A stretch of DNA of 64,000 nucleotides. Source: a virus. Its lineage: Duplodnaviria > Caudoviricetes. Positions 23,120 to 58,506 of the stretch are shown piece by piece (within the stretch, counting starts at the first letter, position 1; the number at the start of each line of letters is the position of its first letter). Location: IMG/VR virus record IMGVR_UViG_2863283106_000001, positions 32,001 through 96,000 of that record; one strand, written 5' to 3'. A program made the position numbers and the translations under genes. The notes under the pieces were generated by a model. It was not told the DNA's origin and ran no database searches. It saw only the letters and a list, made by a program, of their open reading frames with translations.

Positions 23120-23157
23120 GCCGCGGACCATGCACAGTGCAGGTGGTTAGCGTCGCG
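23120..23157 (-). promoter_or_regulatory. Class-A promoter (representative of about 14 copies)
   Basis: CGCGACGCTAA-N14-CATGGT-N7-ATG; near-identical geometry at 26623-26660. Confidence 0.7.
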
Positions 23158-32708: not shown

Positions 32709-33863
32709 TCAGGCCGGTGCCGTCGGGTCGTGTACGGGAACCTTGTCGAACGGGTTCTTCTTCGCGTCCTGGGCGGGGCGGACGTAGACCTTGCGGGGGA
32801 TGGATGAGCCCTTGGCCCACCGGCCGGCCCGCTCGAGGTCCTCGTCCGTGGCGTCGTTCGCGGCAAGGTCGGTGGCGGCGCCCGCGCGTAGGCCGTGGGA
32901 GGTGATTGGCCGGCCGTCGCCCACCAGGCCGGCCTTGGCGAACCAGTGCTTCACGCGCTCATTGACGACGTGCCCCCGCAGGTGAAGGCCCCGCTTGGTG
33001 GCCGTTTTCGCGCGGGTCTCCTCCGTGGCCGGCATGCCGTTCTTGAGGAGGTGCCGGAAGACGGGGCCGGTCGTGACGCCCATGCTGGCGAGGTAGTCCA
33101 GCCAGCGGCGCATCCGGCGGACGAGCTGGACGTCCTCCGGCCGGTCCTTGAGGGGGATCGTCTGCTCCTCGTCCTTGTGGGTCTTGTCCTCGGCGAGCCA
33201 GACAAGGACGCGGTCGTCCAGGACCTTCACGTCCTCGATCTCCAGGTTGACGTCCTCGATGCTGCGCCCGAGGAACATGTACCCGAAGGCGAACATGGCC
33301 GCGTCGCGGATGCCGATCGGCCGGCCGTCGGCTTCGGCCTTCTCCATCATCGGCACGACGTACGACAGGGTGAGCGGGAAGGCCTGCCGCGTGCGCACCG
33401 CGCGCTTGTTCTTCTTCCGGTAGTCGGCCAGGAGCCGCAGGTACAGGCTGTTATCCGGCTTCTTCCCCGCGGGCATCGCCGTACGGATCCGCGACATGTA
33501 GTTCTTGATCGTGGCGACCTTGAGGCCCCGCTGCATCAGGTGCCGACTGTACTCGGTGAACGTCGCCGTGGTGCACGGCACCGCCACACGGCCCTGCTCC
33601 GCACACCACGCCTTGAAGGCCTTCATCGGGCCGGAGTCGCCCGGGTCGGACTCGTCCAGGATGCGCGCGGTCTCTTCGCTGACGTACAGGTCCCGCTCGG
33701 TGTACGTCGTGCCCGGATCGTCGCTGGTCGGGATGGACTCCCCGGGCCGCAACACCGTGTGCTCGTCGACGAGCGGGCGGGGCGCCGGCGCAGCGCGCAC
33801 CAGCTCCCCGTCCTCGACGAATTCGGCGTCGACGACCTCGTCGTCCTCGGCGCGCACCGTCAT
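32709..33863 (-). CDS. Cre-like tyrosine recombinase
   Basis: R (LGRSIE), K (DKT), HGLRAG, GRW, Y (RKVYVR). Confidence 0.85.
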   Translation of the reverse strand: MTVRAEDDEVVDAEFVEDGELVRAAPAPRPLVDEHTVLRPGESIPTSDDPGTTYTERDLYVSEETARILDESDPGDSGPMKAFKAWCAEQGRVAVPCTTATFTEYSRHLMQRGLKVATIKNYMSRIRTAMPAGKKPDNSLYLRLLADYRKKNKRAVRTRQAFPLTLSYVVPMMEKAEADGRPIGIRDAAMFAFGYMFLGRSIEDVNLEIEDVKVLDDRVLVWLAEDKTHKDEEQTIPLKDRPEDVQLVRRMRRWLDYLASMGVTTGPVFRHLLKNGMPATEETRAKTATKRGLHLRGHVVNERVKHWFAKAGLVGDGRPITSHGLRAGAATDLAANDATDEDLERAGRWAKGSSIPRKVYVRPAQDAKKNPFDKVPVHDPTAPA

Positions 33864-40962: not shown

Positions 40963-43002
40963 GTGTCCACACCTCGAGTTACGCCGGATCACGTCACCTC
41001 GGCTACGGAAGCCGCTTACGAGGCCTTCACCGTTACCAGGCCCTCCCGCAGCTCCCGCATGCTGCGCATCGCGTGCACCGTCGTGCAGCGCCGCGCCCCC
41101 TACTTCGCCCCTCCCGTCGTCGCCGGAACGTGGGGGAGCTGGATCTACGCCTCCGCGTGGATTGGTGACCCGGGGCTGGAATGGCCGATCGCCTACGGCA
41201 CGGCGGGCGCTGTGCTGGGCGCGGCCACGGTCGGGGCCACTGTCCTGGGTATCCGGCACCCGATCGCGCTGCCCGCCCTGTACGGCGGCGCCGTGGCGTC
41301 GGGCACGCTGCTGTGGTCGGCGTGGCAGACCGCGTTCCCGTCTGCACCTGGCGCGGCCGTCGGCCTGGTGGGTGCCATCGCGGCCGGTGTCCCGTACTGG
41401 CTATGGCTGGCCAAGCACCGCCTGAACCGCGCCAAGATCGACAGCAAGACCGTGAAGCAGGCTGCGGCCGTGCCTGTCGAAGTGGTCCTGGCGCCCGACG
41501 ACGTCGCCGGCGCGCTGGCCGCCACGGGGACGCCCGGCGCGACCCTCGAGCAGATGCTCCGCCACCCTGATGGCGCGTGGACCGCCATCCTCTCTCTGCC
41601 GGTCGGTGTCTCCCCCCGGGACATCGCCGGCAGTGCGCAGCGTGTCGCGCGTCTGCAGGCCGCTTTGCGTCTGGCGCCCGGCTGGACGCTCGAGGTCGGG
41701 GACGGCGGTGCCTCGCACCACCTGATCGTCACCGCCCGGCCGCCCGCCCCGCAGAACACGGTCACCATTCCCTCCCGGCACCCCATCCTCGACGAGCTGG
41801 AGGAGTGGGACCCCTGGCAGCCGGTCCTCGTTGCGATCGACCTGGACACCGGCGAGGGCGTCCACCTGCACCTGCTGGCCCGCGCCGGCATCCTCATCGC
41901 CGGTCTGCAGCGCATGGGTAAGTCCGTGCTGCTGTCGGTGGTCGTGGCGCACCTGGCGCTCGCCGGGGCGCGGCTGATCCTCGCGGACGCCAAGCTGGTT
42001 GAGCTGTCCCTGTGGGCGCCGCTGTGCCAGCACGAAGACGACTTCATCGGCCGCGACCCCGCCGCGTTCCTGGCGAAGCTGCTGGAGCTGCAGCGGGAAA
42101 TCGACGTCCGCTACGCCCGCCTGGTGCGGGAGGGCCGCACGAAGGCGGAGCCGGGCGACGGGTGGACCACGATCGCGCTCATCGTCGACGAGCTGGCGGC
42201 GTTCATCGACATCCCGGACCGCAAGCTCCGTGGGCAGATCGTGTCCGTGCTGCGGGACATCCTCTCCCGTGGCCCGGCCTGCCTCGTCCCAGTCGTCCTT
42301 GCCACGCAGAAGCCGGAGGACAAGGTCGTCCCCTCTCAGATCCGCGACGTCTGCGGGCAGAAGGTCGCGCTGGCGACGACCACGCCGGAGATGACGGACA
42401 CCATCCTCGGGCGTGGTTGGGCCGCCAAGGGCGCGGCCGCGCACCTGATCGGCGAGTCGGAGAAGGGCAAGGCGTACCTCCTCGAGGACGGCTCCCGGCC
42501 GCGGAAGGTGCAGACGTTCCCGTTCGAGCCGCCGGAGCGCCACGAGGTCATCACCGTTGTCCGTGAGCTGTGGCCCGACCGCCCCGGTGCCCGGGTGCCG
42601 CTGCCCGGCGCCGAGGACCAGGATCCGGACCCTGTGCCGCCGACTCCCCCGCCGGGCGGCGGTGGCGGTGGTGGTCCGCGTGGCGGCCGGCCGCACCTGC
42701 GGCCGGTGCTGACGTACCCGGACGGTTCCCGCATCGAGGAGAACCGAAAGCCGTTGTGGGAGGCGCTGCAGCAGGCCGGCCCGGAAGGGCTGACCAAGCC
42801 GGAGGCGGTCAAGCGCGGCATCTGTAACCACCACACGACCATCAACCCGTGGCTGGCCCAGTGGGTCCGCGCGGGCTGGGTCGAGGAGTCCGGTAAGCGC
42901 GACCGGGCTGTCGTCTACGTCCTCACCGCAGCTCAGCACACCCCCACCCCCGAAGCGTCCGCCACCAGCGAGGAGAGCACCGCATGCCGCACGAGCCTGT
43001 GA
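40963..43002 (+). CDS. traB: TraB-like FtsK/SpoIIIE conjugative DNA translocase
   Basis: N-terminal TMs; Walker A GLQRMGKS, DAK.VEL, Walker B LIVDELA, ATQKP; Pro/Gly linker and C-terminal winged helix. Confidence 0.85.
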   Translation: MSTPRVTPDHVTSATEAAYEAFTVTRPSRSSRMLRIACTVVQRRAPYFAPPVVAGTWGSWIYASAWIGDPGLEWPIAYGTAGAVLGAATVGATVLGIRHPIALPALYGGAVASGTLLWSAWQTAFPSAPGAAVGLVGAIAAGVPYWLWLAKHRLNRAKIDSKTVKQAAAVPVEVVLAPDDVAGALAATGTPGATLEQMLRHPDGAWTAILSLPVGVSPRDIAGSAQRVARLQAALRLAPGWTLEVGDGGASHHLIVTARPPAPQNTVTIPSRHPILDELEEWDPWQPVLVAIDLDTGEGVHLHLLARAGILIAGLQRMGKSVLLSVVVAHLALAGARLILADAKLVELSLWAPLCQHEDDFIGRDPAAFLAKLLELQREIDVRYARLVREGRTKAEPGDGWTTIALIVDELAAFIDIPDRKLRGQIVSVLRDILSRGPACLVPVVLATQKPEDKVVPSQIRDVCGQKVALATTTPEMTDTILGRGWAAKGAAAHLIGESEKGKAYLLEDGSRPRKVQTFPFEPPERHEVITVVRELWPDRPGARVPLPGAEDQDPDPVPPTPPPGGGGGGGPRGGRPHLRPVLTYPDGSRIEENRKPLWEALQQAGPEGLTKPEAVKRGICNHHTTINPWLAQWVRAGWVEESGKRDRAVVYVLTAAQHTPTPEASATSEESTACRTSL

Positions 43003-44320: not shown

Positions 44321-45334
44321 CTATGCGGTACTCTCCCCGGCCTGTTGCCGCGCGAGGAGGGTGCGGCGCATCGTCTCCCACCTGGTCGGCACCAGGTCCT
44401 CCTCCGGCACGCCGGCGGCGTCCTGCTTGATCTGCACGGCGTCGGCGAGCTTCTTGTACCACTTGCTGATGCCGCGGCGGCGGATCGGGACGCCGGCGTC
44501 GGGGTTGGGCGGGGTGGACAGCCACAGGTGCCGGGGGACTCCGCCCTGCAGGCGGTCGATCAGCCGGGTACGGCGGTCGAGCCAGTCCTCGAGGCGGCGG
44601 CCGGTGTCCGGGCTCAGGGGGATCGTCTCGGGCTCGGGCATCTTCCCGCGTAGGCCGCCCTGCGGCTGGCGCAGCAGGGTGAGGGTGCGGGTGTCGGCGG
44701 TGAGGACCAGGTCGTCGACGCGCATGGACTCCAGCTCGCCCAGGCGCGGCAGGACGTCGCGCATCACTGCCCACATGGCCAGGCCGCGCACGATGATGTC
44801 GGGCCGGTCGGTCTCGGGCCACTGGGCGGCCTCGTCCTCCAGGTGCTGGGTGATGAGGTCGGCCATCAGGGGGGAGACGGTGGGCCGTAGTCCCCACGGC
44901 GGTAGGTCGGGCATCTCGAACGGGATCTGCGCCTGGCGGGCGAGGGCCTCGAGGCAGAAGATCCGGATCCGCTCGGTGGTGTCGTAGCTGGTGGGGTCGG
45001 TGGACACCGTGGGCGCGGTGCGCAGGTATCCGCCGCGGCCGTAGAGCAGGTATGCGTGGACGGCGTCCGGGGCGAGGAGCTCGGCGAGGGAGTCGCCGGC
45101 TGTCTCGGTCAGGCCCAAGGGGAGCGCCAGGGCGAGCTCGCTGGCGACCCACTCGAGTTGCTGCAGGCGGGCGTCCGAGACGACGTCCTTGGCGGTGCCG
45201 TTGACCGTGCGGAACACGTCCAGGACCCGCTCGAGCTCCCGCAGGGCGGGCGGGGTCGAGGGGACAGCGGTCAGCGCGGCCGCCGGTGCGCGGCCGCGGC
45301 TGTCGTCGTCGAGGGGGCGGGCGGGCGAACTCAT
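44321..45334 (-). CDS. Degenerate tyrosine-recombinase-fold protein
   Basis: RGLAMWAV..PRLGEL..M.VDD..IPLS..L..WL..R; ends at WETMRRT without the catalytic H or Y. Confidence 0.6.
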   Translation of the reverse strand: MSSPARPLDDDSRGRAPAAALTAVPSTPPALRELERVLDVFRTVNGTAKDVVSDARLQQLEWVASELALALPLGLTETAGDSLAELLAPDAVHAYLLYGRGGYLRTAPTVSTDPTSYDTTERIRIFCLEALARQAQIPFEMPDLPPWGLRPTVSPLMADLITQHLEDEAAQWPETDRPDIIVRGLAMWAVMRDVLPRLGELESMRVDDLVLTADTRTLTLLRQPQGGLRGKMPEPETIPLSPDTGRRLEDWLDRRTRLIDRLQGGVPRHLWLSTPPNPDAGVPIRRRGISKWYKKLADAVQIKQDAAGVPEEDLVPTRWETMRRTLLARQQAGESTA

Positions 45335-45536: not shown

Positions 45537-47333
45537 TCAGTTCAGCAGACCGCGGCGGCGGGGCGGGTTGATCGGCTCCGGTTCGTAGGGGGCCAGGAGG
45601 ATCGCCTCGGCCCGGTCGGGGGATTTCATGCCGCGGCCCTTCATCTGCTTCTTCGACTCGACGACGGAGTACCCGCCGGCGTTCGACAGGAGCTTCGGCG
45701 TGGAGAGCTGCGCCGCAGACTTCTTGTCGATGCGGTAGCGCAGCCGGCCGCGGCCGGTGGACGGGTCCGGCTGCAGGAGGCTGCGGGTGGCGAGCCACAT
45801 CTCGTCACGCTTGCGGTAGGGCCGCATGACGGCGCCCGGGTCGTCCTGGGAGGGGTTCTCGGACACCATCACGCCGACGATCTGCGCCTGGTGCTCGCCG
45901 TTCTGCCCCCAGGTCTCGAGCATGGACACCACGCCGTGGCCGATGCCGTTCTTGTCGACCTTGACGCGGACGGGGTGCGGGGACTTGAGGGCGTCGGCCA
46001 GGCGCTGCGCGGCGTGGATCTCCTCGAGGACCTTCTTGGCGACCTTGACCTGGTTGTCGTTGGCGGCGCCAGCGGAGGCGTGCCGGTTCTCGATGACGTC
46101 GCCGATGGAGCGGGCGATGGCGAACTCGTCGCCGCCGTCGGCTGCGACGTCGACGCCGAGGCGGACCCAGGCGCCTTCGCGGACGGTGTGGGTGGCGGTC
46201 TCGTCCTCGAGTCCGAGGTCGCATAGGCGGTGCCAGCCGGGCCCGGTGGGGTCTTCGGTGTTGAGGGCGTCCTCGATCCAGGTGGGCGGGATGACGAGCC
46301 CTCCGCCGCCCTTGGGGAAGCGCGCGTACACCTTGGCGATGACGTACGGGTGATCGGGGCCGTAGGCGCGGATGGTGCGGTCCACCCAGTCCTGGTCCGG
46401 CATGTGCCGGGCGAGGGTGTGCAGGTCGTTCGGGTTGGGCGGGCAGTCCGTGCAGTACGGCACCCGCTCCCCCGTGATCGCGGGGGAGGTGAGGGAGGAG
46501 ATCGGGATGGTGACGGTGGTCGGCTCCTCCGGGTCCTCCCCTTCCAGGCACAGCTCCTCGAACCAGGACGCGGGGTCGTCCATGGCGGGGTTGCCGATGG
46601 CGAGCATCGCGGCGTGTCCGCCGGTCAGGAGGTTGTTCGTGCCGTGGCCGATCGCCGGGGCGATACCGCCGGCCTCGTCGACGATGAGCAGGATGTGGGC
46701 CATGTGGATGCCCTGCATGGCGGCCTCGTCGTTCGCGGGGGCCGAGAAGCCGTACGCGGCGACGAAGTCGTGCCCCTGCGGGGTGGGCATCTTGTACTGG
46801 ACGGTGTCGCAGTAGCCGGGCAGTCCGGCCCGGGGCACCACCTTGCGGATGTGGGGCCAGAGCTGCCGCTGCACCTGCCGGAAGCGGGTCGCGGTGGTGA
46901 TGCACAGCGCGGTGCCGACCGGGTAGACGTTGACGAACCAGACGGCGGCGCGCGCGGCGAGGTGGGTCTTGCCGACGCCGAAGCCGGCCGGGACGGCGAC
47001 GCGTTTGTGGGTGACGATCGCGTCCAGGACGTCGCGCTGCAGGCTCCAGATGGACTCTCCGAGGACGTCCTCGACGAACCCGCTCGGGGTGTCGCGCCAT
47101 AGGCCGTAGAGGGAGCCGGTGACGCGTTCGACCTCGCGCATGACGTACGGCCGCTCTCGGGCGGTGATGTCGTGCTTGAAGGCGTGGCGACGGGCGGTGA
47201 CGGGGGCGCGGAGCAGGATGTCGGCGACGTTGGCGGCGTCGCGGGATTTGACGCCGGGCCGGCGGGCGCGCTGCAGCTCCTGGCGTGAGGGGGCCACGCG
47301 GAGATGTGAGGTCGGGGGCTGCGTGCGGGGCAT
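45537..47333 (-). CDS. terL: Terminase large subunit
   Basis: Walker A GFGVGKT, Walker B LLIVDEA, motif C IGNP, nuclease LGVDVAADGGD, KSPDRAEA; leaderless start behind a class-A promoter. Confidence 0.9.
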   Translation of the reverse strand: MPRTQPPTSHLRVAPSRQELQRARRPGVKSRDAANVADILLRAPVTARRHAFKHDITARERPYVMREVERVTGSLYGLWRDTPSGFVEDVLGESIWSLQRDVLDAIVTHKRVAVPAGFGVGKTHLAARAAVWFVNVYPVGTALCITTATRFRQVQRQLWPHIRKVVPRAGLPGYCDTVQYKMPTPQGHDFVAAYGFSAPANDEAAMQGIHMAHILLIVDEAGGIAPAIGHGTNNLLTGGHAAMLAIGNPAMDDPASWFEELCLEGEDPEEPTTVTIPISSLTSPAITGERVPYCTDCPPNPNDLHTLARHMPDQDWVDRTIRAYGPDHPYVIAKVYARFPKGGGGLVIPPTWIEDALNTEDPTGPGWHRLCDLGLEDETATHTVREGAWVRLGVDVAADGGDEFAIARSIGDVIENRHASAGAANDNQVKVAKKVLEEIHAAQRLADALKSPHPVRVKVDKNGIGHGVVSMLETWGQNGEHQAQIVGVMVSENPSQDDPGAVMRPYRKRDEMWLATRSLLQPDPSTGRGRLRYRIDKKSAAQLSTPKLLSNAGGYSVVESKKQMKGRGMKSPDRAEAILLAPYEPEPINPPRRRGLLN

Positions 47334-47630
47334 GGGCCGGAAGGTGCAGCGCGGGCGGCGCTTGTGTCGCGGCCTGGCCGGGGCCCATGCCCAGGCCGCC
47401 GGCCAGACCGCGCGGTTCCGGCACTGCCATGACGAACTGCCTGCCCTGTCTGTCAGGAAAGGCGTCTGTGCCGGAAGTCGGTGCCGGGGTGAGGCCTCTC
47501 CCGGGGGGGTGGAGCAGGACCGTCACCCCGGCTCTTGGGGGGGGGTGCGTGGCTGGCGCGTCCTTCCCCGGGGGGATGTCGGGGCGGGAGAGCCAGCCGC
47601 ACCCTGTAGTACGTCAGGGGCCGGATTCTG

Positions 47631-48365
47631 TTACACCCCCGGCGAGAAGGGCGGCCGCAGCCGGTCCCCGCGGAAGTACCGGAGCGCCTGCCGCTCGTAT
47701 CGGCGCTGCGCCGGGCCGTCGTCCGGGTCGGCGGAGGCGAGCCAGGCCGGGGTGATGTCGAGCGTCCAGACGGCGGGCGCGGCCGGGCCCGGAACGACCT
47801 TGAGGGGCTTGCCCGCGGCCACCCACTCATCGAGTGCGTTCTTGGCGACCTGGCGCAGCCGCTCGGTTTCCCCGGCCGTGGGCGTACGGCCGGGCCCCGC
47901 GGTGGTCACCTCGCTGATGTTGAACGGGAAGTCGTTCAGGTCCGTCGCCGGCAGCCCTAGGGAGACCTCCAGCTTCTTGCCCATCTGCTCGAGGAGGGTG
48001 ACGACCGCGGCGACGGCGCTGCAGCCGGGGCAGGGGCAGTCCTCCGGGGCTTCCTCAGCGGCCGTGGCCTCCGGCACGTCCTGGGTGTGCTCCGGCGCGT
48101 CCTCGGCGGCCGTGGCGACCGGTGCCGTGCCGGTGGTGGCGTCGAGGCTGGCGAGGAGGTCCTGCTCCTCCTCAGCCCGCCGTATCGCCTCCCGGAAGAG
48201 GGTCATCTCCGACTCGACGACGGCGCGCTCCAGCGCGGTGAGCGCGAACCATGGGGTGGACTCCTCGCCGGTGGCCTGCCGGAGGAAGGCCCGGCGGGTC
48301 TCGTAGAAGTGGCGGGTCAGGTGGGGCGGGAGCGTGGTCCGCGGGGGCGTGGTTCGCGTCGTCAT
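47631..48365 (-). CDS. Hypothetical protein (CPCPGC)
   Basis: Leaderless ATG at 48365 after TGTCAC-N16-CGTT. Confidence 0.6.
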   Translation of the reverse strand: MTTRTTPPRTTLPPHLTRHFYETRRAFLRQATGEESTPWFALTALERAVVESEMTLFREAIRRAEEEQDLLASLDATTGTAPVATAAEDAPEHTQDVPEATAAEEAPEDCPCPGCSAVAAVVTLLEQMGKKLEVSLGLPATDLNDFPFNISEVTTAGPGRTPTAGETERLRQVAKNALDEWVAAGKPLKVVPGPAAPAVWTLDITPAWLASADPDDGPAQRRYERQALRYFRGDRLRPPFSPGV

Positions 48366-48458
48366 GCTGGGGGGAACGCGGGCGGCCGGATTCTGTGACA
48401 CCCCTGCCCCGGCTGCTGCTGCGCCTGGTGCTGCTCGATCCCTAGCGAACCCCACCAC

Positions 48459-48694: not shown

Positions 48695-49321
48695 CTACAG
48701 GCCGTACCTCTTACGGGCGGCCGCCCGGTGCTGGTACGCCAGAGTCCGGCTGACGCCGGCGTGCTCGGCGATCTGCTCCGGGCTCCACTCGTAGGGCGGC
48801 TGCGACAGGGCGAGCACGGCCGCCTGCATGACGCGTACGGCAACTTCACGGCGGGCCCGTGCCGCGTGCACGATCGGGGCCGCCTCGAGGAGCTTGGTCT
48901 CGGCGTCCTGGACGCGCTCGACGCCTGCCTCTTCCGCGAACCGGATGAGGTCCTCGTTCGTCTCGGCGTCCGGCAGCGGGTGCGTCTTGTCGCCGAATAC
49001 GGTCGCGGCGAGGTTCCGCCGGTACCCGATCGGGGACAGACCGACAGTTTTGGCCAGTCCGAGACGCTGCTCGTAGAACCACAGGTGTGCCAGCGCGCGG
49101 TCCCGCTCCCCCTGATAGAGGGCGATCTCGGCGTCAGCCTGACGGACGGCTTCCGCGGCCTTCACGACCAGGTCGTCCGGACGGGCGCTGACGATCAGGT
49201 CCTCGGGCCGCTCGGGGCGAAGACCAAGAGCCGTGAGGGCCACGGTCTCGGCGTCCTTGGCGATCTGCTCGTAGTCCGGGCCCTTGATGCGCGGCCCGTA
49301 CTTGACTCCAGCCTTGGGCAT
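48695..49321 (-). CDS. HTH DNA-binding protein
   Basis: C-terminal WSPEQIAEHAGVSRTLAYQH; GGAG RBS; followed by a hairpin with a U-tract at about 48643-48677. Confidence 0.65.
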   Translation of the reverse strand: MPKAGVKYGPRIKGPDYEQIAKDAETVALTALGLRPERPEDLIVSARPDDLVVKAAEAVRQADAEIALYQGERDRALAHLWFYEQRLGLAKTVGLSPIGYRRNLAATVFGDKTHPLPDAETNEDLIRFAEEAGVERVQDAETKLLEAAPIVHAARARREVAVRVMQAAVLALSQPPYEWSPEQIAEHAGVSRTLAYQHRAAARKRYGL

Positions 49322-49691: not shown

Positions 49692-50272
49692 CGGCGGTGC
49701 CCCTTCTGTGCGGCGCGGAGTGCGGCCCGTTCCCTCTTGCTGGCGGCCCACTCCTTCCGCGGGGCGAGCGCGTGCGCCCCCACGGATACGCGGCCCAGAA
49801 CGACCTCGAGACCGGCCCTCTTCGCGTTCCGTCCCTGCCCGTGCCACAACCAGGAGATGGCGAAGATCGCGGGTGGCACGTTGGGGCTCGCCGGCCACAC
49901 GCCGACGGTGAACCGGCCGAAGTCGACGAAGTGCGACCGCTGCGCGGACAGCAGCACCTGCACGACGAGGTACACGAGGGCAGAGCCCAGCGATACCCAC
50001 TGCCACAGCAGGAACGCGATCAGGGCGTTCGCGGTCCACTCGCCCAGGAACCAGGCCGCCTTCCCCACGCGGGACGGGTCCGGCCGGGGGAACCGCACCG
50101 TGCCGGGCAGGTGCTCGAGAGTGCGCGGGTCCTCGTCGGTCCATGCCCAGTGCCGCTCATGCCGCTCGCTCCCAGAGGCGGCGTGCGCGCCCTCGTGCCC
50201 GGCGAGCCGCTGGCACTGCAGGTTGAGGGAGAAGCAGGACCAGACAGGACACTGGCGTTGACGACGGCGCAT
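49688..50272 (-). CDS. Membrane protein
   Basis: GGAGG RBS; C...C..GH.G.H motif, then TM segments. Confidence 0.5.
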   Translation of the reverse strand: MRRRQRQCPVWSCFSLNLQCQRLAGHEGAHAASGSERHERHWAWTDEDPRTLEHLPGTVRFPRPDPSRVGKAAWFLGEWTANALIAFLLWQWVSLGSALVYLVVQVLLSAQRSHFVDFGRFTVGVWPASPNVPPAIFAISWLWHGQGRNAKRAGLEVVLGRVSVGAHALAPRKEWAASKRERAALRAAQKGHRR

Positions 50273-50448
50273 CACGGCCTCCACGAGGTGAGGAAGTCGA
50301 GGAGCCCGTCGACCAGGCCCTCGAAGAGATCGGCGATCCGCCCGGCCCTGGACCGCTGCGGTGTCCCGGCGCAGGCGCGGCGGGCGCGCTTGCCGGGCCT
50401 GCGCCGGGACGTACGCCTCTCGGCCCCGGGCGGCCCACAACCGGCGCC

Positions 50449-50805
50449 TCATCGGGCGGCCGCCGCGGTCACGGCCCGCACCCCGTCGGGGGTGAGCAGG
50501 TACAGGCGGCCGTCGGGGTAGCGCACCTCGACCTCGCTGGGGAGCTGCGGCCGGCGAACCTTCCACCCGGCCTCGTACGACTCCCGCGGGTGGTCCTCGA
50601 ACCAGCCGTTACACGTCGTGCAGACCAGCAGCAGGTTGTGCGCCTGGTTGATCCACGGCTCCCGTGCCCCGCCCATGCCGCGGTTCACCCGGTGGTGGAT
50701 GGTCAGGTCCTGCCGGGTCTCGCAGCGCACGCAGGCGCCCCCGTCACGCGCGTATACGAGGGCCTTCACCACGTCGGTGGGACCGGTCCGTCGTCGTGCC
50801 TTCAC
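50449..50805 (-). CDS. HNH endonuclease (packaging-associated type)
   Basis: RDGGACVRC..HHRVNRGMGG..NLLLVCTTCN. Confidence 0.8.
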   Translation of the reverse strand: MKARRRTGPTDVVKALVYARDGGACVRCETRQDLTIHHRVNRGMGGAREPWINQAHNLLLVCTTCNGWFEDHPRESYEAGWKVRRPQLPSEVEVRYPDGRLYLLTPDGVRAVTAAAAR

Positions 50806-50993
50806 AGCACTGGTCTCCTACCTGCCCCGGGCGCCGGACCGCGTCGTTCACGGTCCTGGTGGGCGCGCCCGGGGCGAGGCGGGGAGAGTGGACGGCGGCC
50901 GCGCCTTACGTCGCGCCGAAATGGCCCGGCGCCTCAAGGGGGCTTGGGATACTTCTGTCTGTCCTGCTGCTGACGACTGAGGAGCGCCCCTCG

Positions 50994-51209
50994 ATGTCTG
51001 ACGAGAACGCGTTCGTGATCTTCACCGTGATTGGAGTCGCGCATCTGGCCGGGGCGTATCTCACCTGGTCGCGCCGCTCCCGGTGGGAAGCGGACACTCA
51101 GCGGTGGAGGGGCGTGATGCGTTGGTTCAGCGGCCAGCGTCAGCTCAACGCCGAGTTGGCCCTCGGCGTCCTCTTCCTGGGCCTGGGCCTGGCCATCGGT
51201 CTCGCGTAG
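50994..51209 (+). CDS. Small two-TM membrane protein
   Basis: GAGGAG RBS. Confidence 0.5.
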   Translation: MSDENAFVIFTVIGVAHLAGAYLTWSRRSRWEADTQRWRGVMRWFSGQRQLNAELALGVLFLGLGLAIGLA

Positions 51210-51551
51210 CTACCACGGCCCGTCAAGTCTCGCGTGGAGCTGCGCCCAGGTGGTGACGCCGAGGACGTCCGCGGCGAACCCGGCCAGGGTGTCGGCCCAC
51301 AGGGCGTACGGCGTGCCGTGGCGCAGGTACGACAGCACCAGGAGGTCACACAGGACGTCGTCGGCGAGGATCGCGATCGTGGCGCGCCGGTCGGCGGCGG
51401 GGGCCGCGGTCAGATGCTCGAGCTGGTCCAGGCGGGCGAGCCAGTCGGGAACGGCCGAGGTGCGGGTGCACAGGCCTGAGTCGACGACGTTCCGGGCGCG
51501 GGCCGCGAGGCCGGCGATCCGGGTGCGGGGCGGTGCGGCGGTCGGGAACAT
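51210..51551 (-). CDS. Hypothetical protein
   Basis: Near-leaderless ATG behind a class-A promoter; contains a YALWADT.AGFA.DVLG motif like the TerL N-terminus. Confidence 0.6.
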   Translation of the reverse strand: MFPTAAPPRTRIAGLAARARNVVDSGLCTRTSAVPDWLARLDQLEHLTAAPAADRRATIAILADDVLCDLLVLSYLRHGTPYALWADTLAGFAADVLGVTTWAQLHARLDGPW

Positions 51552-51630
51552 GCCCGCGGACCGTAGGCACGGCCACGGCTTGCGTCGCGCAGCGAGGACG
51601 CGACGTTAAGAGGCCCTGCAGCCGATGGTG
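51552..51630. promoter_or_regulatory. Back-to-back pair of class-A promoters
   Basis: CGCGACGCAA-N14-TACGGT on minus; CGCGACGTTAA-N14-GATGGT on plus. Confidence 0.65.
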
Positions 51631-51677
51631 CGCGGCCCTGGGACGCAACAGGCGTCCCTGCGCCCCTTGGAGCTCCC

Positions 51678-52199
51678 GTGTCCCGCCTGTTCGGCAGCCT
51701 CGCGGCCCTTCTCTACATCGGCACCATCGTCTCTGCGAACTGGGCCACTGCCCACTTCGGTTTCCTGTCGGTCGGCTTCGGCCTGTCCGCGACGGCGGGG
51801 ACGTTCCTCGCCGGCGGCGCGCTGCTCGCCCGCAACCTCGTCCAGGACGCGTACGGGCGCACCACTGCCCTGGTGCTGATGACGGTCGGTACCTGCCTGT
51901 CGGCGTTCACCGCTCCGGCCGCCCTCGTGGTGGCCTCCGCCGCGGCGTTCGCGTTCTCCGAGCTCGCCGACATGGCCGTCTACACGCCGCTGCGCCGTTC
52001 CTACTGGGCCCGCGCGATCCTGCCCGCGTGCCTGGTCGGCGCGCTCGTCGACACCGTGCTGTTCCTCGCCATCGCCGGGTTCCCGATCTGGTCGGCGGTG
52101 CCGGGCCAGATGGTCGGCAAGGCCTGGGCGGTGTTCCTGCCGGTCGCCGCGGTGACCGCCTTCCGGGCGGCCCGGAAGGTACGGACGGCGCGGCTGTGA
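51678..52199 (+). CDS. VUT/YhhQ-family 7-deazaguanine (preQ0/preQ1) transporter
   Basis: ANW..AGT..G..L..RN.VQ..G; AS.AAF..SEL.D..VYT.LR; VD..LFL.IA..GQ..GK. Confidence 0.8.
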   Translation: MSRLFGSLAALLYIGTIVSANWATAHFGFLSVGFGLSATAGTFLAGGALLARNLVQDAYGRTTALVLMTVGTCLSAFTAPAALVVASAAAFAFSELADMAVYTPLRRSYWARAILPACLVGALVDTVLFLAIAGFPIWSAVPGQMVGKAWAVFLPVAAVTAFRAARKVRTARL

Positions 52200-52834
52200 T
52201 CTACCTGACCACGCCCTCCGGGGACAAGGTCCGGGCGGCGATGGCCGCGGGCCACGGGATCGCGTGGATGAGTACGCCCGCCTGCGGCCACGTCCTGCCC
52301 GCAGGGCAGATATGGGCAGCGGACAACGGCCGGTTCGGGAAGGGCTGGCCGGGCTACGAACGGTGGTGGCGGTACCTGGAGAGCCACGCCGACCGGGCCG
52401 GGGACTGCCTGTTCGCGGTCGCTCCGGACATCCCCATGGACGCGGCCGCAACGCTCGAGGAGTCCCGGCCGTGGCTGCCGAAGATCCGCGCCCTGGGCTA
52501 CCGGGCGGCGTTCGCCGCGCAGGACGGCGCCGAGGACCTGCCGGTGCCGTGGGACGACCTGGACGTGCTGTTCCTCGCCGGCTCCACCGAGTGGAAGCTC
52601 GGGCCGGGCGCGCGCGTGCTGGCGCTCGAGGCGAAGCGGCGCGGCAAGCGCGTGCACATGGGGCGGGTGAACTCCCTCAAGCGGTTGCGGTACGCGCACT
52701 CGATCGGCTGCGACAGTGCCGACGGCACGTTCGTCGCGTTCGGGCCGGACAAGAACCTGCCGAAGTGCCTGGCGTGGGTGGCAGAGCTCAACGGCCAGGA
52801 GGAGCTGTTCCCGCTCAAGGCGCCCGCCGCTTAG
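52196..52834 (+). CDS. DpdA/TGT-like guanine transglycosylase
   Basis: WAADNG.F..F.V.PD..DA..TL..QDG..LF.AGS..WK..HMGRVNS..DS.DGT; GTGA-coupled to the VUT gene. Confidence 0.65.
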   Translation: MIYLTTPSGDKVRAAMAAGHGIAWMSTPACGHVLPAGQIWAADNGRFGKGWPGYERWWRYLESHADRAGDCLFAVAPDIPMDAAATLEESRPWLPKIRALGYRAAFAAQDGAEDLPVPWDDLDVLFLAGSTEWKLGPGARVLALEAKRRGKRVHMGRVNSLKRLRYAHSIGCDSADGTFVAFGPDKNLPKCLAWVAELNGQEELFPLKAPAA

Positions 52835-52878
52835 GTGAGGTGACGCGGTTCTGCAGCTCCCGCCGCGTCACCTCACCT
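52833..52878. terminator. Bidirectional terminator
   Basis: AGGTGAGGTGACGCGG...CCGCGTCACCTCACCT. Confidence 0.7.
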
Positions 52879-52884
52879 CACGGG

Positions 52885-53358
52885 TCAGGCCGCGCGCTGG
52901 ATGGCGAGCGCCCGCTCGAGCTCGTCGAGCATCGCCACGATGTCGTCGACCTTCACGTAGGAGATCCCGAACGTGACCGTGCCGTCGTCGTGGACGTCGA
53001 ACTCGTACTCCGCGTAACTCTGCTCGTCCTCGTAGAAGTACCGGCCCGGCTCCGCTTCGGCGAACCCGCCGGGCCCCTCGTCGAACCAGCCAGCGCCCCA
53101 TATCTCCGCCATGGCTTGGCCAACGGCCGCTTTGGGGACATGCTCGAACTCGATGGTGGCGCGCCCGTGGTCATCGAGGCATGCCTTCCCCAGGCCTTCC
53201 CCGGATGTCTCCCAGCGCAGGGTGGGGCCGAAGCACTGGCACCTGTCGGCGTGGGTCAGGGCGGGGAACGCCGCGATGAACGCGGCTTGCGCGGTCCGCT
53301 GGTGCTCGCTCCATGCGTCGGTCCAGTCCTCGAGCGCTTCCTTGACGTGCGGTTGCAC
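52885..53358 (-). CDS. Hypothetical protein
   Basis: AAGGGAG RBS; class-A promoter at 53452-53461. Confidence 0.6.
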   Translation of the reverse strand: MQPHVKEALEDWTDAWSEHQRTAQAAFIAAFPALTHADRCQCFGPTLRWETSGEGLGKACLDDHGRATIEFEHVPKAAVGQAMAEIWGAGWFDEGPGGFAEAEPGRYFYEDEQSYAEYEFDVHDDGTVTFGISYVKVDDIVAMLDELERALAIQRAA

Positions 53359-53480
53359 GTTGCTCCCTTCCGCCCACGGGGCGGGGCCGCGGGGTTGCGG
53401 CCGCGGGACGCGCCGCGGGCAAGGAGGGGCACCCTGCACACCGCGGAATGCTTGCGTCCGCTCCTGGGGTGCGGGGTCAG

Positions 53481-54302
53481 TCAGCCGACTGCAGGCTTCG
53501 CCACCAGGTCGCACGACTCGAACAGCTCGAACCACTCCTCCGGCTCGCCGTCCTCGTCCGCCAGGGCGACCAGACGGGAACCGCCGTACACGGACTCGGC
53601 AAGGAAGTTCATCGTGGCGCGCATGTCGGGGTCGGCGATCCGGTCCGCGCCGACGGCGACCGCGACGTACTGGTCCAGCCCGGCCATGGCGTCAGGGTTG
53701 GTGTTCCACACGGCGAACGCCATGACGCGCTGCGGGTCCTCACCCCACCAGGCACGCCGCCCCAGGTCGAGCCGGCCGGGCAGCAACGCCTGATCGACGA
53801 ACCGGGCCAGGATCCGCCAGACACTGTCCGAGTGGTGCCGGTACTGGGCGAACGACACGGCCACCCGCGGAACGTCCCCGTACGGGCGGGGACAAGACAC
53901 CAGGGCTGTCCACACCAGGAGCACGGCCGCTGCTGTGTCGTGGTCTGGGCGCGGGATGCGGGCGGCGATCCGGCGGGCGTACGGGTCCGCCACGGCGCCC
54001 AGGACGGCGCGCTGCTCGCTGGTGAGGGCCAGGCCGAGAACGTCCTGGGCGAACCTGGCGGGGGTGTCGTGCCACAGCTCGTAGGCGCTGCCGGTGTGCA
54101 GGTCCAGGGCGATCATCACGTCCAGGACCGCGGCGTCCTCGAGGGCGGAGACGTGCGTGAGCCGCTCGTCGACCGGCATGTTCAGCAGTCGGTGCGCGAG
54201 CTCCACGGACTGCGGGACCGGCTGGACGATCCGGTGCGGGTGGTTTCGGCGCCAGGCCGTGGCGGCGAGCGTGGCGTACCGGGTGGGCGGGATGTACGTC
54301 AT
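53481..54302 (-). CDS. Degenerate paralogue of the TerL N-terminal ATPase domain
   Basis: TGSAYELWHDTPARFAQDVLG..EQRAVL aligns with TerL TGSLYGLWRDTPSGFVEDVLG..LQRDVL; no Walker A/B and no nuclease domain. Confidence 0.7.
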   Translation of the reverse strand: MTYIPPTRYATLAATAWRRNHPHRIVQPVPQSVELAHRLLNMPVDERLTHVSALEDAAVLDVMIALDLHTGSAYELWHDTPARFAQDVLGLALTSEQRAVLGAVADPYARRIAARIPRPDHDTAAAVLLVWTALVSCPRPYGDVPRVAVSFAQYRHHSDSVWRILARFVDQALLPGRLDLGRRAWWGEDPQRVMAFAVWNTNPDAMAGLDQYVAVAVGADRIADPDMRATMNFLAESVYGGSRLVALADEDGEPEEWFELFESCDLVAKPAVG

Positions 54303-54422
54303 GGGCGCGGACCGTAGGGTCCCCGAGCGCTTGCGTCGCGCGCCTTGCGCCGGGGCCTGGGGGTACGGCTGCGCCCCGGCCGGGGAGTCGTCCGGCCGGG
54401 GCGCAGGAGCGGGCGGAGGGAG

Positions 54423-54791
54423 TTACCCTCCGGTGCTGCCGCCGGTGGAGCCGGGGCACTCCGGATCGAAGATGTTGCACGGGGTGCCGACGGACGGTGT
54501 CGGCGTCGGGTCCGGGGCGGTCGGCTTCGCGGTGGGCTGCGTGCTCGGCGACGGGGTAGCGGGCGCGGTCGGCGCCGGGGTGGTCGGTGCCGGGGTGGTC
54601 GGTGCGGGGCCCGGGTCGCGGGTGTAGCCGGGGCCCTTCACGAGGATCAGCGCCATGGCGGCCGCGGCGAGAACACCGACGACCAGCCACACGGCCGCGG
54701 CGGTCCAGAGCACGGCGCCGGCCCATCGGGGGAGGCGGGGCTTGCAGTCGCCGTTCTTGCAGGCGGCAGTGCAGGTGAGCGGGGCAGACAC
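54423..54791 (-). CDS. Single-TM protein with Pro/Thr-rich tail
   Basis: AAGGA RBS; PAPTT repeats; class-A promoter. Confidence 0.6.
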   Translation of the reverse strand: MSAPLTCTAACKNGDCKPRLPRWAGAVLWTAAAVWLVVGVLAAAAMALILVKGPGYTRDPGPAPTTPAPTTPAPTAPATPSPSTQPTAKPTAPDPTPTPSVGTPCNIFDPECPGSTGGSTGG

Positions 54792-54862
54792 AGGGGGTCC
54801 TTCCGTACGGGGTACTGGAAGGGCGGACCGTGCCCGGCCCGGACGGCTTACGTCGCGTCGTG

Positions 54863-55210
54863 TCACTTCGCTGAGCGGACCGGGGGCGCCTTCACCGCGG
54901 GCGCGGCCGGAACCTTCGGCGCGGCCGGGGCTGGCGCCTTCGGCTGCGTCCGGGCAGGCTTGCGCGCGCTGCTGTCGGGATTGCTGCCGCCGGGGACCAC
55001 TCCGGGCCCGTACGGCTTGCACGTCACCGGGTCCACGGTGCCCGCGAGGGCCGGAGCGCACCGGCCGGGGCTGCTGTCCTTGCTGGGGGCGCGGGTGGCG
55101 TCGGCGGCCAGGAAGGCGACGCACAGCACCAGGGCGAGCACGACACAGCCGATGCTGAACGAGATGAACAGACGGAACTGGCGGTCGTCCCGGGGGAGGT
55201 TGGTCTTCAC
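54863..55210 (-). CDS. Single-TM protein with Pro/Lys-rich tail
   Basis: One TM segment; class-A promoter. Confidence 0.55.
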   Translation of the reverse strand: MKTNLPRDDRQFRLFISFSIGCVVLALVLCVAFLAADATRAPSKDSSPGRCAPALAGTVDPVTCKPYGPGVVPGGSNPDSSARKPARTQPKAPAPAAPKVPAAPAVKAPPVRSAK

Positions 55211-55367
55211 TGCGTGGCCTTCCAGGCGGAGGGATGAGGCCACGCAGGCTCGAGGGGCGGACGGTCTTACGTCGCGCGCTGCCGCTCAGGATCGCTCAGG
55301 GCGGGCGACGGGCGACCGGGGCAGGGGGAATGGGCCCCGCCGGGCGTAGGCGGGGCCACAGGGCCGC

Positions 55368-55805
55368 TCAGGCGGCCTGCTGGACGTCTCCCGGCTCGAG
55401 GGTGGCGCTCTTCCCCGCCGGGGCGTCGGGGACGGCGCCGGGGGCGTGCTTGAGTGCCATACGGGCGGCGACCAGATCGGCGCCCGTGGTCCCCTCCTTC
55501 TTGCAGCGCTCCCACCACCCATGGCACTGCACGGTGGCGGTCGCCTTGCGCAGCTCCTCGAGGAGTTTGTCGAACTCGGCGGCGTCGTCCTCCGGCCAGC
55601 CGTCCGTGGCGGGGCGGCCGGGGTGCTGCCGTCCCCGTTCCGTCTCCTCCGGCCATCCGTCGTGGGGCTCACGGGACCAGGGGAGTCGGGCCTGCAGCGC
55701 GTGCAGCTTGGCGTACAGCTCGGCGGCCGTGCGCTGGGCGGCGACCAGGTCGTTGGGGAAGGCGTGCGGGTTGAACGGGGCCGGGGCCGGGTCGGGGGTG
55801 GTCAT
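55368..55805 (-). CDS. Hypothetical protein
   Basis: Leaderless: TAGGCT-N7-ATG. Confidence 0.6.
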   Translation of the reverse strand: MTTPDPAPAPFNPHAFPNDLVAAQRTAAELYAKLHALQARLPWSREPHDGWPEETERGRQHPGRPATDGWPEDDAAEFDKLLEELRKATATVQCHGWWERCKKEGTTGADLVAARMALKHAPGAVPDAPAGKSATLEPGDVQQAA

Positions 55806-55815
55806 GCTTTCGAGC

Positions 55816-57030
55816 CTAGTTCGAGCCGGCGGCCGCGCCCTGCTCCACGCGGGGTGAGGTTCGACGCTCGCCAGTCCGCCCGGCGTGCTCGGCGTCCTGG
55901 TCCACACGCACCGCGAGCCGCGGGCCGTCCTCCGACCGCTCGGCGTCCTCGAGGACCTCCGCCCACCAGGCGTAGCGATCGGGCCGGATCGGGTGCTCCG
56001 TCGCCTGGTAGAACGCCACGGCGCCGTTGATCCGGACGGGCCGCAGCAGCCCGAGCACATCCCCCAGCGCGGCAACGGCCCGCTCGGCGCGATGCCGGGC
56101 GACGTCTTCGCCGGCTTCGGCTTCACCGCAGCGGGCCGCGTACCGGTCGCGCTCGCGCTTCGCGTCGGCCCACTGCCGGTTGCGGAGGCGGAGCTGGGCC
56201 CACAGGTTCTGTACCTGTGTCGGGTCCCCTCCCAGGGCGCGCACCGCGGTTCGCAGGGTGCGCAGCTCCCCCTCAGCGAGCTTCGCCCGGAGCTGCCACC
56301 CGTCGCGCTGCCGGGTGAGCTGGGCGCAGTCCACCAGGATGCCGACGCTCGGCGCGCCTGCGCCACGGATGACGCGGAGCGCTTCGGCGGCGTGGTCGCG
56401 GCCGCACATCGCGCAGTCCTCCCGCTCGCTCGGGTCGGTCGCCTCGCGGTGCTCCTCGGCTTCCTGCAGCACCTGGCACACGCGGGCGGTGACCGTCTGG
56501 AACTCGACGAGGGCGGACCCGTGCTCGCACTCCGGGCCGGTCGCGCGTTCCTGGCGTTCGGCGGCCGCGCGGGTCGCCCACTGGTGCGCCTCTCGGGCGT
56601 GGTCGATCAGCGTGGGCCACGGGGTGTCAGGGTGGACGTCCAGGGCTTCGGCCAGGGCCCGGCGGCGCATGGTGTCGGCCCCCTCCTCCTGGAGGGCCTT
56701 CTGCTGCCACGTGGTGGCGGCGCCCACGGCGATACGGACCGCGTCGGTGCTGCCCTTGGGGGCGGGCCTGGCGTTGGCGCGCTGTTCGGCCTCGCGTATG
56801 GCGGCGTCCGCGGCCTCACGGTGCCGGGCAAGGCGCCGGTTCGTCTTGGCCAAGCTCTTGCCGGTCTTCACCCCCAGACGGACCTCCTCGCGGACGTGGG
56901 CGGCCAGGACGGCGGCCTGCTCCGGGGTGAGGGTCCCGGCCTCGAGGCGGGGCAGCAGGTCGTCGAACGCGGCGCGCCGTGCCTCGCGTTCGTGGCGCTG
57001 CGGTGTGGTGCGGGAGTGGCGGCGGGGCAT
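55816..57030 (-). CDS. Coiled-coil hypothetical protein
   Basis: GAGGAG RBS; TGTAAC-N17-CGTT promoter. Confidence 0.6.
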   Translation of the reverse strand: MPRRHSRTTPQRHEREARRAAFDDLLPRLEAGTLTPEQAAVLAAHVREEVRLGVKTGKSLAKTNRRLARHREAADAAIREAEQRANARPAPKGSTDAVRIAVGAATTWQQKALQEEGADTMRRRALAEALDVHPDTPWPTLIDHAREAHQWATRAAAERQERATGPECEHGSALVEFQTVTARVCQVLQEAEEHREATDPSEREDCAMCGRDHAAEALRVIRGAGAPSVGILVDCAQLTRQRDGWQLRAKLAEGELRTLRTAVRALGGDPTQVQNLWAQLRLRNRQWADAKRERDRYAARCGEAEAGEDVARHRAERAVAALGDVLGLLRPVRINGAVAFYQATEHPIRPDRYAWWAEVLEDAERSEDGPRLAVRVDQDAEHAGRTGERRTSPRVEQGAAAGSN

Positions 57031-57183
57031 GTGCTCGGCTCCTCGTGCACGGGCGGCGGGGCCCGGCGGGAAGTCCGGGCACGGCAAGGAACGGGCGCGG
57101 CGGCCGATCTGTTACAGCGGCCGCGGGAACGACGGAGCGCCCGGCCTCCGCGGGGTGCGGGGCCGGGCGCTCCAGGGGGCCGG

Positions 57184-58506
57184 TCAGGCGGCCGGGGTGT
57201 AGTCGTCGGTGCTGTGGACCAGTTCATTCATGCGGTAGAGCTGGCAGAGGTAGTCAGTGGCCAGCGTCTCTCCGTCGACGTTGAAGAACTGGGCGAGCAG
57301 CCGCGCTGCCATGAGCGGGGGGACGACGTCGGCGAGCTGCTGGAACACGCTCGTGCGGGAGCCTTGCGAGGGGTAGGAGGCGCGGAAGCCGACGAGGAGT
57401 GCGGCTTCGTTCTGGGTGAGGCGCAGGCCGTCAGAGACTCGCTTCCAGGTGCGGGCCTTGCCGGTGAGGCAGTTGGAGGGGCGATCGGCGGAGAACTCGT
57501 TGCCGCCCTTGGGGCGGCCGGTCTTCGGGTCGATGCCGCGCACGCCACGGGTGTTGATCTTCTCGCCCTCCTTCCAGCCAAGGGCCTGCGCCATCGTGGT
57601 CTGGGGGACGTTCTCGGTGGGCGTGGGCAGGTACGACAGGCGGCGGGAGGCGAGGAAGAACACCCGCTCGCGGCGAGAGGCGAGCCCGAACTGGGAGGCT
57701 TCGAGGATGCCGTGGGTGGTCCAGTACCACTCTCCCTCTTCCTGGCCGCCGCGCAGCTCTAGGCGGATGTCGTCGAGGATCTGCTGCGGCAGTCGGCTGG
57801 ACTGCTCCATTGCGATGAACTCCAGCGGCGCGCCCGCTGCCTGCATGCCGAACGCCCAGAACAGGAGTTCCGCCATGAGGCCGATGCGGGGGTCGGTGAG
57901 CGGGGCGAGTTGGGCGCGCAGTTCGTCCCAGGTGACGCCGGAGCGCGGGGCGTAGCCGTCGTGGTAGCCGAGTTCGTCGCAGGTGTCGCAGCCTTCGCAC
58001 CAGTCATCCAGCTCGTTACCGGGAAGGAATCCGCCCGCCTCGGAGGTCTGGGCGAGCACGCGGCACAGGGTGTTGATGTTGGCCTGGTCCTGCCCGGAGT
58101 GCTTCCCGGCAGGGGAGAAGGAGGGGCACGGCGGGGAGACGATCAGGCCGCGGACGTGGCGCAGGGCGTAGTGCTCGGGGTCCAGGGTGGTGATGTCGGC
58201 GCAGATGCGGAAGTGCCCGGCGGCGCGGGCGGTGGCGCACGCGTCCTTGGAGATGTCGATGCCGACGGCGTCCACGGCGACGCCGAGAACCTTCGCGATG
58301 CCCTCGGACCAGCCCCCCGGGCCGGCGAACAGCTCCACCACGCGGATCGGGTCGCCGGGCAGCGGGTCGAGCAGCCAGCGGCCGGGGAAGGGGTCGGCGG
58401 CCGCGTCCAGGACGGCGAGGACCTTCGGGGGGATGGGCAGACCGGCCTTGCGGGCGAGGGTGGCGACGTGGACGGCGGTTGCGACCGCGGGGGGCAGGGT
58501 CCGCAT
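57184..58506 (-). CDS. Orphan DNA (cytosine-5) methyltransferase
   Basis: ELFAGPGG, SPPCPSFS, MEQ (ENV variant), RRERVFF, QQLADVV. Confidence 0.88.
   Translation of the reverse strand: MRTLPPAVATAVHVATLARKAGLPIPPKVLAVLDAAADPFPGRWLLDPLPGDPIRVVELFAGPGGWSEGIAKVLGVAVDAVGIDISKDACATARAAGHFRICADITTLDPEHYALRHVRGLIVSPPCPSFSPAGKHSGQDQANINTLCRVLAQTSEAGGFLPGNELDDWCEGCDTCDELGYHDGYAPRSGVTWDELRAQLAPLTDPRIGLMAELLFWAFGMQAAGAPLEFIAMEQSSRLPQQILDDIRLELRGGQEEGEWYWTTHGILEASQFGLASRRERVFFLASRRLSYLPTPTENVPQTTMAQALGWKEGEKINTRGVRGIDPKTGRPKGGNEFSADRPSNCLTGKARTWKRVSDGLRLTQNEAALLVGFRASYPSQGSRTSVFQQLADVVPPLMAARLLAQFFNVDGETLATDYLCQLYRMNELVHSTDDYTPAA

Follow-up and report, generated by a model that had tools for sequence, protein, structure and literature searches.

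Non-catalytic paralogous subunits are familiar from ring and filament ATPases, among them clamp-loader delta and delta-prime, F1 alpha and the Rad51 paralogues. For the large terminase (TerL) of tailed phages the closest described proteins are T4 vs.8 and Ksap1/Ksap2, phage proteins that are not terminases but, according to the available parts of two reports (PMC13601566, PMC11564622), look like the TerL ATPase domain. In the accessible text of the first, vs.8 is given as homologous to the TerL ATPase domain with Walker A and B kept, and all three proteins, whose function is unknown, have recently surfaced as immune triggers (PMC13601566). Our literature search found no description of a catalytically dead TerL paralogue of the kind analysed here. 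This is ORF273, from a Streptomyces prophage known from the 112.5-kb provirus record G000 (IMG/VR record IMGVR_UViG_2863283106_000001), which is 87% complete; bases 32001-96000 of this record, a stretch of 64,000 nucleotides with about 70% G+C, contain ORF273 and are referred to below as the window. ORF273 resembles vs.8, Ksap1 and Ksap2, so far as these are described in the available text, in being lineage-restricted and accessory, in its likeness to the TerL ATPase domain, in having no nuclease and in having no known function. It differs from vs.8 as described there in the loss of both Walker A and Walker B, and from all three in an extra N-terminal helical domain that it has in common with its own TerL. 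The ORF273 locus is a cleaner case: a clear TerL paralogue in which every catalytic motif has been lost and purifying selection kept, accompanied by a second paralogue that consists of the N-terminal domain only, with one promoter-like type for all three genes. At stake is whether terminase pseudo-enzymes act in packaging regulation or in an arms race over TerL sensing.

ORF273 occupies 53481-54302 on the minus strand, starts with ATG and encodes 273 residues, corresponding to an N-terminal helical domain and an ATPase core; we refer to it and its relatives as family A. Its coding composition is strong, with G+C fractions of 0.75, 0.52 and 0.91 at the three codon positions. An antisense open reading frame (ORF) at 53448-54317 (+) was without such composition and was rejected as a gene. 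Read in reverse orientation, the window is syntenic with Streptomyces phage Gilgamesh (MN234216, 129 kb), an isolated phage whose host on record is Streptomyces lividans, and ORF273 is the counterpart of Gilgamesh gp146, annotated 'hypothetical protein'. The full-length TerL (598 residues) lies at 45537-47333 on the minus strand. It matches phrog_2, 'terminase large subunit' (E = 3.7e-20), and its Gilgamesh counterpart, gp1, is annotated as the large terminase subunit; a Pfam search with TerL gave no match.

The relationship between the two proteins was evident at the level of single sequences and of family profiles. BLASTP aligned residues 62-264 of ORF273 with residues 64-262 of TerL (60/210 identities, 29%, E = 3e-9), and hhalign comparison of a 23-member family-A alignment with a 12-member TerL alignment gave a probability of 99.7 and E = 1.3e-26 over 223 columns (family A 28-262, TerL 29-259). 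An AlphaFold2 model of ORF273 (predicted local distance difference test score, pLDDT, 87.9; predicted template modelling score 0.89) resembled terminase ATPase domains. In a Foldseek search of the PDB the T4 gp17 ATPase came first (2o0j, E = 4.4e-5), with the P74-26, HK97 and Sf6 large terminases, and generic RecA-like proteins (Rad51, DEAD-box) followed after the terminases; in BFVD, large terminases were again at the top, with a best E of 3e-9. Family searches were less telling: ORF273 had no match in Pfam, NCBIfam or PADLOC, and among PHROGs nothing beyond phrog_14127 (function unknown, E = 0.07). Searches of PDB sequences with TerL and with the ORF273 family profile returned no matches. 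No sequence relation of ORF273 to vs.8 was detected when 50,697 phage records were searched by tblastn: the two Gilgamesh records alone were hit, and no direct comparison with vs.8 was made. A sequence-only reading of this stretch had described ORF273 as an intact ORF with colinear similarity to the first ~265 residues of TerL, from which Walker A, Walker B and the nuclease domain had been lost. These claims held throughout, and all of the motif pairs it quoted were found (LAHRLLNMPV/VADILLRAPV; WHDTP, against WRDTP; RLVALAD..EEWFE/AMLAIGN..ASWFE). Sequence comparison and the predicted structure together confirm ORF273 as a paralogue of the TerL ATPase domain that is predicted to be catalytically dead.

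The extent of the catalytic loss was examined in a motif alignment of 15 family-A members, eight proteins of a second paralogous family (family B, described below) and 11 TerLs. The window TerL is intact for Walker A (GFGVGKT), Walker B (IVDEAGG), the IGNP motif and its C-terminal half. The signature GK[ST] was present in 11 of 11 TerLs and in none of the 15 family-A members; GFGVGKT is replaced by RPDHDT in ORF273 and by P.PDNH across the family. Likewise, IVDEAGG becomes AVGADR in ORF273 and V[AV]DADR across family A, so that the DE pair, which includes the catalytic Glu of Walker B and is found in every aligned TerL, is absent in 15/15 members. The IGNP-type motif, also present in every aligned TerL, gives way to LGGT-like residues, and the C-motif and nuclease domain are absent in all 15. 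ORF273 ends at residue 273, opposite TerL residues ~259-262 of 598. This is close to the end of the TerL ATPase core, so that lid, linker and RNase H-like nuclease are all missing.

The residues that have been kept are of a different character. In the first 300 residues of TerL, 46 columns are invariant or near-invariant; family A keeps 17 of them in full and 9 in part, and differs in 20. The columns that differ include G121, K122, D219, E220, N248 and P249, which handle the nucleotide; the kept ones look structural and include the core residues W79, P83, F86, L91, G92, R100, W132, W159, P172 and D176 (TerL numbering). The replacement sequences P.PDNH and ADADRIADP.MRA rank with the most conserved parts of family A, and mean conservation is highest (0.82) over residues 211-262. 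As the replaced stretches are themselves well conserved, the former active-site face has been remodelled, not eroded. ORF273 thus shares homology, fold and structural-core residues with the TerL ATPase domains (T4 gp17, P74-26, HK97, Sf6 gp2), and is unlike a functional TerL in having no P-loop, DE pair, IGNP motif, lid, linker or nuclease, in its length of 273 residues and in being optional.

Database searches gave 27 family-A relatives, 23 of them full length (272-295 residues, 48-81% identical, mostly on Streptomyces contigs of ~113-155 kb) and four partial (P0024-P0027). Length and start are preserved among the 23 full-length homologues. Ratios of nonsynonymous to synonymous substitution (omega) were estimated from codon alignments of nine genes (36 pairs), in which the G+C content at third codon positions (GC3) is extreme. 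The median maximum likelihood (F3x4) omega was 0.12 for family A and 0.04 for TerL, and the Nei-Gojobori (NG86) omega 0.53 and 0.22, respectively. Shifting the family-A alignment out of frame raised the NG86 omega from 0.53 to 1.16 and 1.43, and constraint was even across the protein (omega 0.58 for the N-terminal domain and 0.49 for the core). Neutral decay across the homologues was for the most part not seen; the full-length homologues, the low maximum likelihood omega and the frame-specific constraint indicate that ORF273 is under purifying selection and is not decaying.

A second TerL-derived paralogue, ORF113, lies between ORF273 and TerL (51210-51551, minus strand; Gilgamesh gp149) and retains the N-terminal helical domain only. 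It aligns with residues 34-101 of ORF273 at E = 1e-8, and its model is all-helical (pLDDT 87.9). It resembles the start of family B, a set of TerL N-half paralogues of 288-359 residues from other Streptomyces elements of ~122-135 kb (P0030, P0033, P0035, P0036, P0037, P0043, P0051 and P0052): it is 58% identical to the first ~111 residues of P0036, and no remnant of the remainder was found downstream. The six family-B members for which a long contig is on record (P0030, P0035, P0036, P0051, P0052 and P0033) are on contigs of 64-135 kb, five of the six being named Streptomyces records. Family B resembles ORF273 in deriving from the N-terminal half of TerL, in the N-terminal domain common to both, in the loss of the catalytic Glu (8/8) and in the size class of its contigs. 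It differs in that its members are longer, retain lid and linker up to a VHAxFP motif, keep the Walker A lysine in 5/8 cases and form a separate group in the tree. A scan of IMG/VR for full-length family-B genes returned 16 TerL loci and the ORF113 of locus L007, but none of the genes sought. In the window, family B survives only as the 113-residue ORF113. The maximum likelihood omega of ORF113 was 0.17; because this gene keeps only the N-terminal domain under constraint, that domain looks like a functional module of its own. The ORF113 orthologues at L009:12121-12495 and L010:12117-12491 differ from the rest beyond residue ~97, and their stop codons lie 11 codons further on; the family-B gene seems to have been cut short at slightly different positions in different lineages.

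In a tree of the shared region, built by a quick search and subject to long-branch warnings, family A formed one clade (Shimodaira-Hasegawa-like approximate likelihood ratio test support 100) on a long stem, and families A and B both fell outside the clade of Gilgamesh-type TerLs. The duplications are therefore old. The tree excludes a recent duplication of the phage's own TerL as the origin of ORF273.

Upstream of ORF273 is a promoter-like element (54311-54339, minus strand) made up of a -35-like box, GCGACGCAAGC, a 12-nt spacer (N12) and a -10-like hexamer, TACGGT, followed after 8 nt (N8) by the ATG. The same arrangement, GCGACGCAAGC-N12-TACGGT-N8-ATG, precedes ORF113 (51560-51588, minus strand), and a homologous element, GCGACACAAGC ... 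CACCTT-N7-ATG, precedes TerL (47334-47370, minus strand). From the -35-like box to the ATG the distance is 37 nt for TerL, ORF273 and ORF113 alike, and the element stands upstream of the ORF273 orthologue in 9/9 loci. The composite motif with GCGACGCAAGC occurs twice in the window against 0.01 expected. Genome-wide (112.5 kb), the pattern GAC[AG]C.A[AG]-N13-17-[CTG]A...T was found 13 times against 1.5 in shuffled sequences, with 12 of the 13 on the structural-gene strand. Sites in the window are at 61132, 54337, 53458, 51586, 47368, 36428 (+), 26657, 23154, 5592 and 4720. They precede TerL, the gene before the portal gene, the giant gene, the protease gene and several genes of the right arm. 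Several sites have a start codon 6-8 nt downstream, and orthologous sites are kept in Gilgamesh. PHROG look-ups of the other genes behind the motif gave no named functions.

Because the -10-like hexamer sits 7-8 nt from the start codon, the geometry is that of a leaderless promoter. Leaderless transcripts are common in actinobacteria, and the conserved element probably functions as such a promoter. The sequence-only reading had called the promoter of ORF273 intact. A sigma-70 consensus scan of 50000-57500, which gave no promoter-like site, did not bear this out as stated; a conserved promoter-like element is, however, present in every locus compared. Gilgamesh encodes a sigma factor of the extracytoplasmic function type, gp92, that might read this class of element. 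No gp92 homologue was found in the 87% of the genome covered by the prophage record, and the promoter class is therefore not tied to gp92. Between the stop codon of the upstream gene and the promoter-like element is a terminator-like hairpin (54369-54406, minus strand) with a 15-bp G+C stem and an 8-nt loop. Its predicted stability of -40.7 kcal/mol (z = -4.9) was equalled by none of 200 shuffled sequences, and the hairpin is also visible in L006, L007 and L011 in an alignment of the upstream regions. Because it parts the upstream gene from the promoter-like element, ORF273 looks like a separate transcription unit, and it would probably share a regulon with TerL and the head genes.

We propose that ORF273 is a non-catalytic mimic of TerL that titrates a packaging partner, either the small terminase or TerL itself, a reading that we hold tentatively and at somewhat below an even chance. 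ORF273 is an old duplicate of the front half of TerL. It retains the N-terminal helical domain together with the RecA-like core, whereas the lid, the linker and the nuclease are gone and, by prediction, so are ATP binding and hydrolysis. It would be made from its own transcript, from the leaderless promoter class of TerL and the head genes; since that class is common to both, ORF273 would be present when the terminase is. The protein may then occupy a binding partner of the N-terminal domain of TerL or of its ATPase surface, with the small terminase or TerL itself as the likeliest candidate, and by doing so tune or gate assembly of the packaging complex, with ORF273 itself neither pumping nor cutting DNA. 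It is an accessory factor, not a core part of the motor. The separate conservation of ORF113, with its N-terminal domain only, suggests that the relevant activity is binding to a partner of the TerL N-terminal region.

Several observations weigh against this proposal, among them the distribution of the gene. Sixteen IMG/VR loci were ascertained through their TerLs (67-75% identical), of which 12 were assessable and four had too little flank; all absences given here refer to flanks of no more than 10 kb or to a first-look search. The conserved backbone runs orf233, [ORF273], orf178, [ORF113], HNH, orf208, orf275, TerL, integrase. Within the available flank, ORF273 was missing in 11 of the 12 assessable loci, and L023 shows a clean absence between two neighbouring genes. 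The sole assessable locus with the gene (L032) is on the same contig as L006; loci L006-L013 say nothing about frequency because they were found through ORF273 itself. Among 401 Streptomyces genomes, with only six candidates scored per genome, 14 had this TerL type and 4 of the 14 had family A. At L013, on a Streptomyces lanatus contig with a TerL 93% identical to that of the window, the 5' half of ORF273 has been replaced and the remainder frameshifted, leaving a decayed copy (L013:10001-10380) of residues ~148-271. About 4.4 kb of unrelated DNA separates the decayed copy from a methylase gene, an interval that in the window holds orf423 and orf233; orf178, ORF113, HNH, orf208, orf275 and TerL align over most or all of their length. 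From these comparisons ORF273 is an accessory gene, apparently dispensable for this type of terminase. In addition, ORF273 is without the lid, linker and nuclease parts expected of a ring subunit, a PDB fold search with the ORF113 model gave nothing below E = 2 and hence no pointer to a partner, and the reading of the upstream element as a leaderless promoter comes from motif conservation. The patchy distribution and the broken copy argue against an obligatory motor subunit. Clamp-loader delta, F1 alpha and the Rad51 paralogues are, like ORF273, pseudo-ATPase paralogues retained next to an active enzyme, but they are obligatory, whereas ORF273 is optional and without the domains for docking as a TerL subunit would.

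The patchy, accessory distribution is also typical of anti-defence genes, and ORF273 could instead be an immune decoy, a mimic of the TerL ATPase that binds host sensors of TerL (Avs1-3, Upx-like), either without letting them be activated or by sequestering them, and so shields TerL. The promoter class common to ORF273 and TerL would suit this role, as would a fold that has been kept with exactly the catalytic and ATP-binding features lost and the active-site face remodelled and conserved. In the available text of PMC13601566, Avs2 binds the TerL ATPase domain, and vs.8, Ksap1 and Ksap2 are predicted in the same Avs2 pocket, the authors suggesting a possible anti-defence role. The same text reports, however, that co-expressed vs.8, Ksap1 and Ksap2 activate Avs2, an outcome harmful to the phage, that EcAvs2 contacts TerL-bound ATP and Mg via a bridging ATP, and that SeAvs3 reads active-site residues together with bound ATP (PMC13601566, as far as its accessible portion goes). 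Since ORF273 has no P-loop it should lack the ATP that Avs2 contacts, and with the P-loop and Walker B it has lost features that Avs2 and Avs3 read. A decoy of the ATPase core also leaves the N-domain-only ORF113 hard to explain, and ORF273 matched no family in PADLOC or elsewhere. We regard the decoy as possible but unlikely. In a more specific form, which we consider less probable again, ORF273 would be a nucleotide-free mimic of the TerL ATPase whose conserved, acid-rich former active-site face (P.PDNH, ADADRIADP) occupies host TerL sensors without triggering them, and ORF113 would be a second mimic, directed at another TerL-binding factor. If true, this would be the first phage-encoded decoy of a pattern-recognition sensor for a core phage protein.

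A further explanation would turn the mimic on competitors: as a dominant-negative TerL fragment, ORF273 might poison the terminase of related phages or satellites, whether co-infecting or resident, or withhold the small terminase from them. A dead ATPase-domain paralogue that retains a partner-binding N-terminal domain would be apt for this, its distribution is accessory, and the available part of PMC10884400 describes a defence, encoded by a prophage, in which invading phages are blocked at virion assembly. Because head and packaging genes of the same phage carry the same promoter class, however, such a protein would meet its own TerL first, and no determinant of specificity was identified. 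In our view this is decidedly improbable.

That ORF273 is a functionless relic of the TerL duplication, drifting to loss, is very unlikely. The decayed copy at L013, the four partial proteins among the 27 database matches and the absence of the gene from most relatives would fit such drift, as would a Gly in the window copy, in the former Walker B stretch, where 13/15 members have Asp. Against it stand the 23 full-length homologues at 48-81% identity with length and start preserved, the maximum likelihood omega of 0.12 with its frame-specific NG86 signal, the GC3 of 0.91 and the upstream element in 9/9 loci; because its stem in the tree is long, family A has survived for a long time.

The sequence-only reading had noted that no small terminase was identified in this stretch and had offered ORF273 as a possible stand-in. 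For the window the first statement stood: no small terminase family match was found among the tested ORFs near TerL. ORF208 (48695-49318) and ORF275 (47631-48458) were rejected as candidates, having no small terminase match and only weak helix-turn-helix leads. It did not stand for the genome, in which a small terminase candidate lies outside the window (G000:C1:2101-2739); the candidate shares 87% identity with Gilgamesh gp85, which carries the annotation 'terminase small subunit', and its match to phrog_4102 has E = 5.6e-25. ORF273 itself had no small terminase family or fold match. The idea that the dead paralogue provides DNA recognition or TerL recruitment in a phage lacking a small terminase, which the missing match near TerL had favoured, loses its main motive because the genome carries this candidate, and with a RecA-like fold for ORF273 and relatives of the same TerL type that do without it, we give it next to no credence.

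Other head and packaging genes of the window are those for the portal-MuF protein (23795-26278), a protease-Nudix protein (2698-4653) and the major head protein (1181-2545). Directly downstream of portal-MuF is a giant ORF of ~5,720 residues (5951-23131, minus strand), the counterpart of Gilgamesh gp48, which is annotated as hypothetical; two pieces of ~1,000 residues searched against PHROG gave no match. Between TerL and the portal gene are an FtsK/SpoIIIE-like translocase gene (40963-43002, plus strand) and two tyrosine-integrase-like genes (44321-45334 and 32709-33863, both minus strand), a translocase and integrase module that recalls Streptomyces conjugative elements, though it lies inside a tailed phage. 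A two-gene cassette on the opposite strand (51678-52834, plus strand) separates orf178 from ORF113. One of its genes encodes a YhhQ-like queuosine-precursor transporter (Pfam Vut_1, E = 2.2e-9; TIGR00697 below cut-off) and the other a 209-residue protein of phrog_15826 (E = 1.4e-81, function unknown), and the cassette may be tied to 7-deazaguanine handling. In Gilgamesh this position is taken by gp148, on the same strand as its neighbours.

Two further observations concern TerL and its relatives. The Gilgamesh TerL is annotated with a GTG start at base 1 of the record (L002:1-30). Its relatives share an ATG and a promoter-like element, and in Gilgamesh these are found ~32 codons upstream, at the right end of the record (the last ~40 bases of L001, which is Gilgamesh 110798-129136); the gene therefore probably runs across the record ends, which would be arbitrary in a permuted assembly. 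Finally, in P0041, a TerL relative of 997 residues, AAMQGIHG and LLLVVDEAGG are separated by an insertion several hundred residues long, immediately ahead of Walker B, that looks like an intein.

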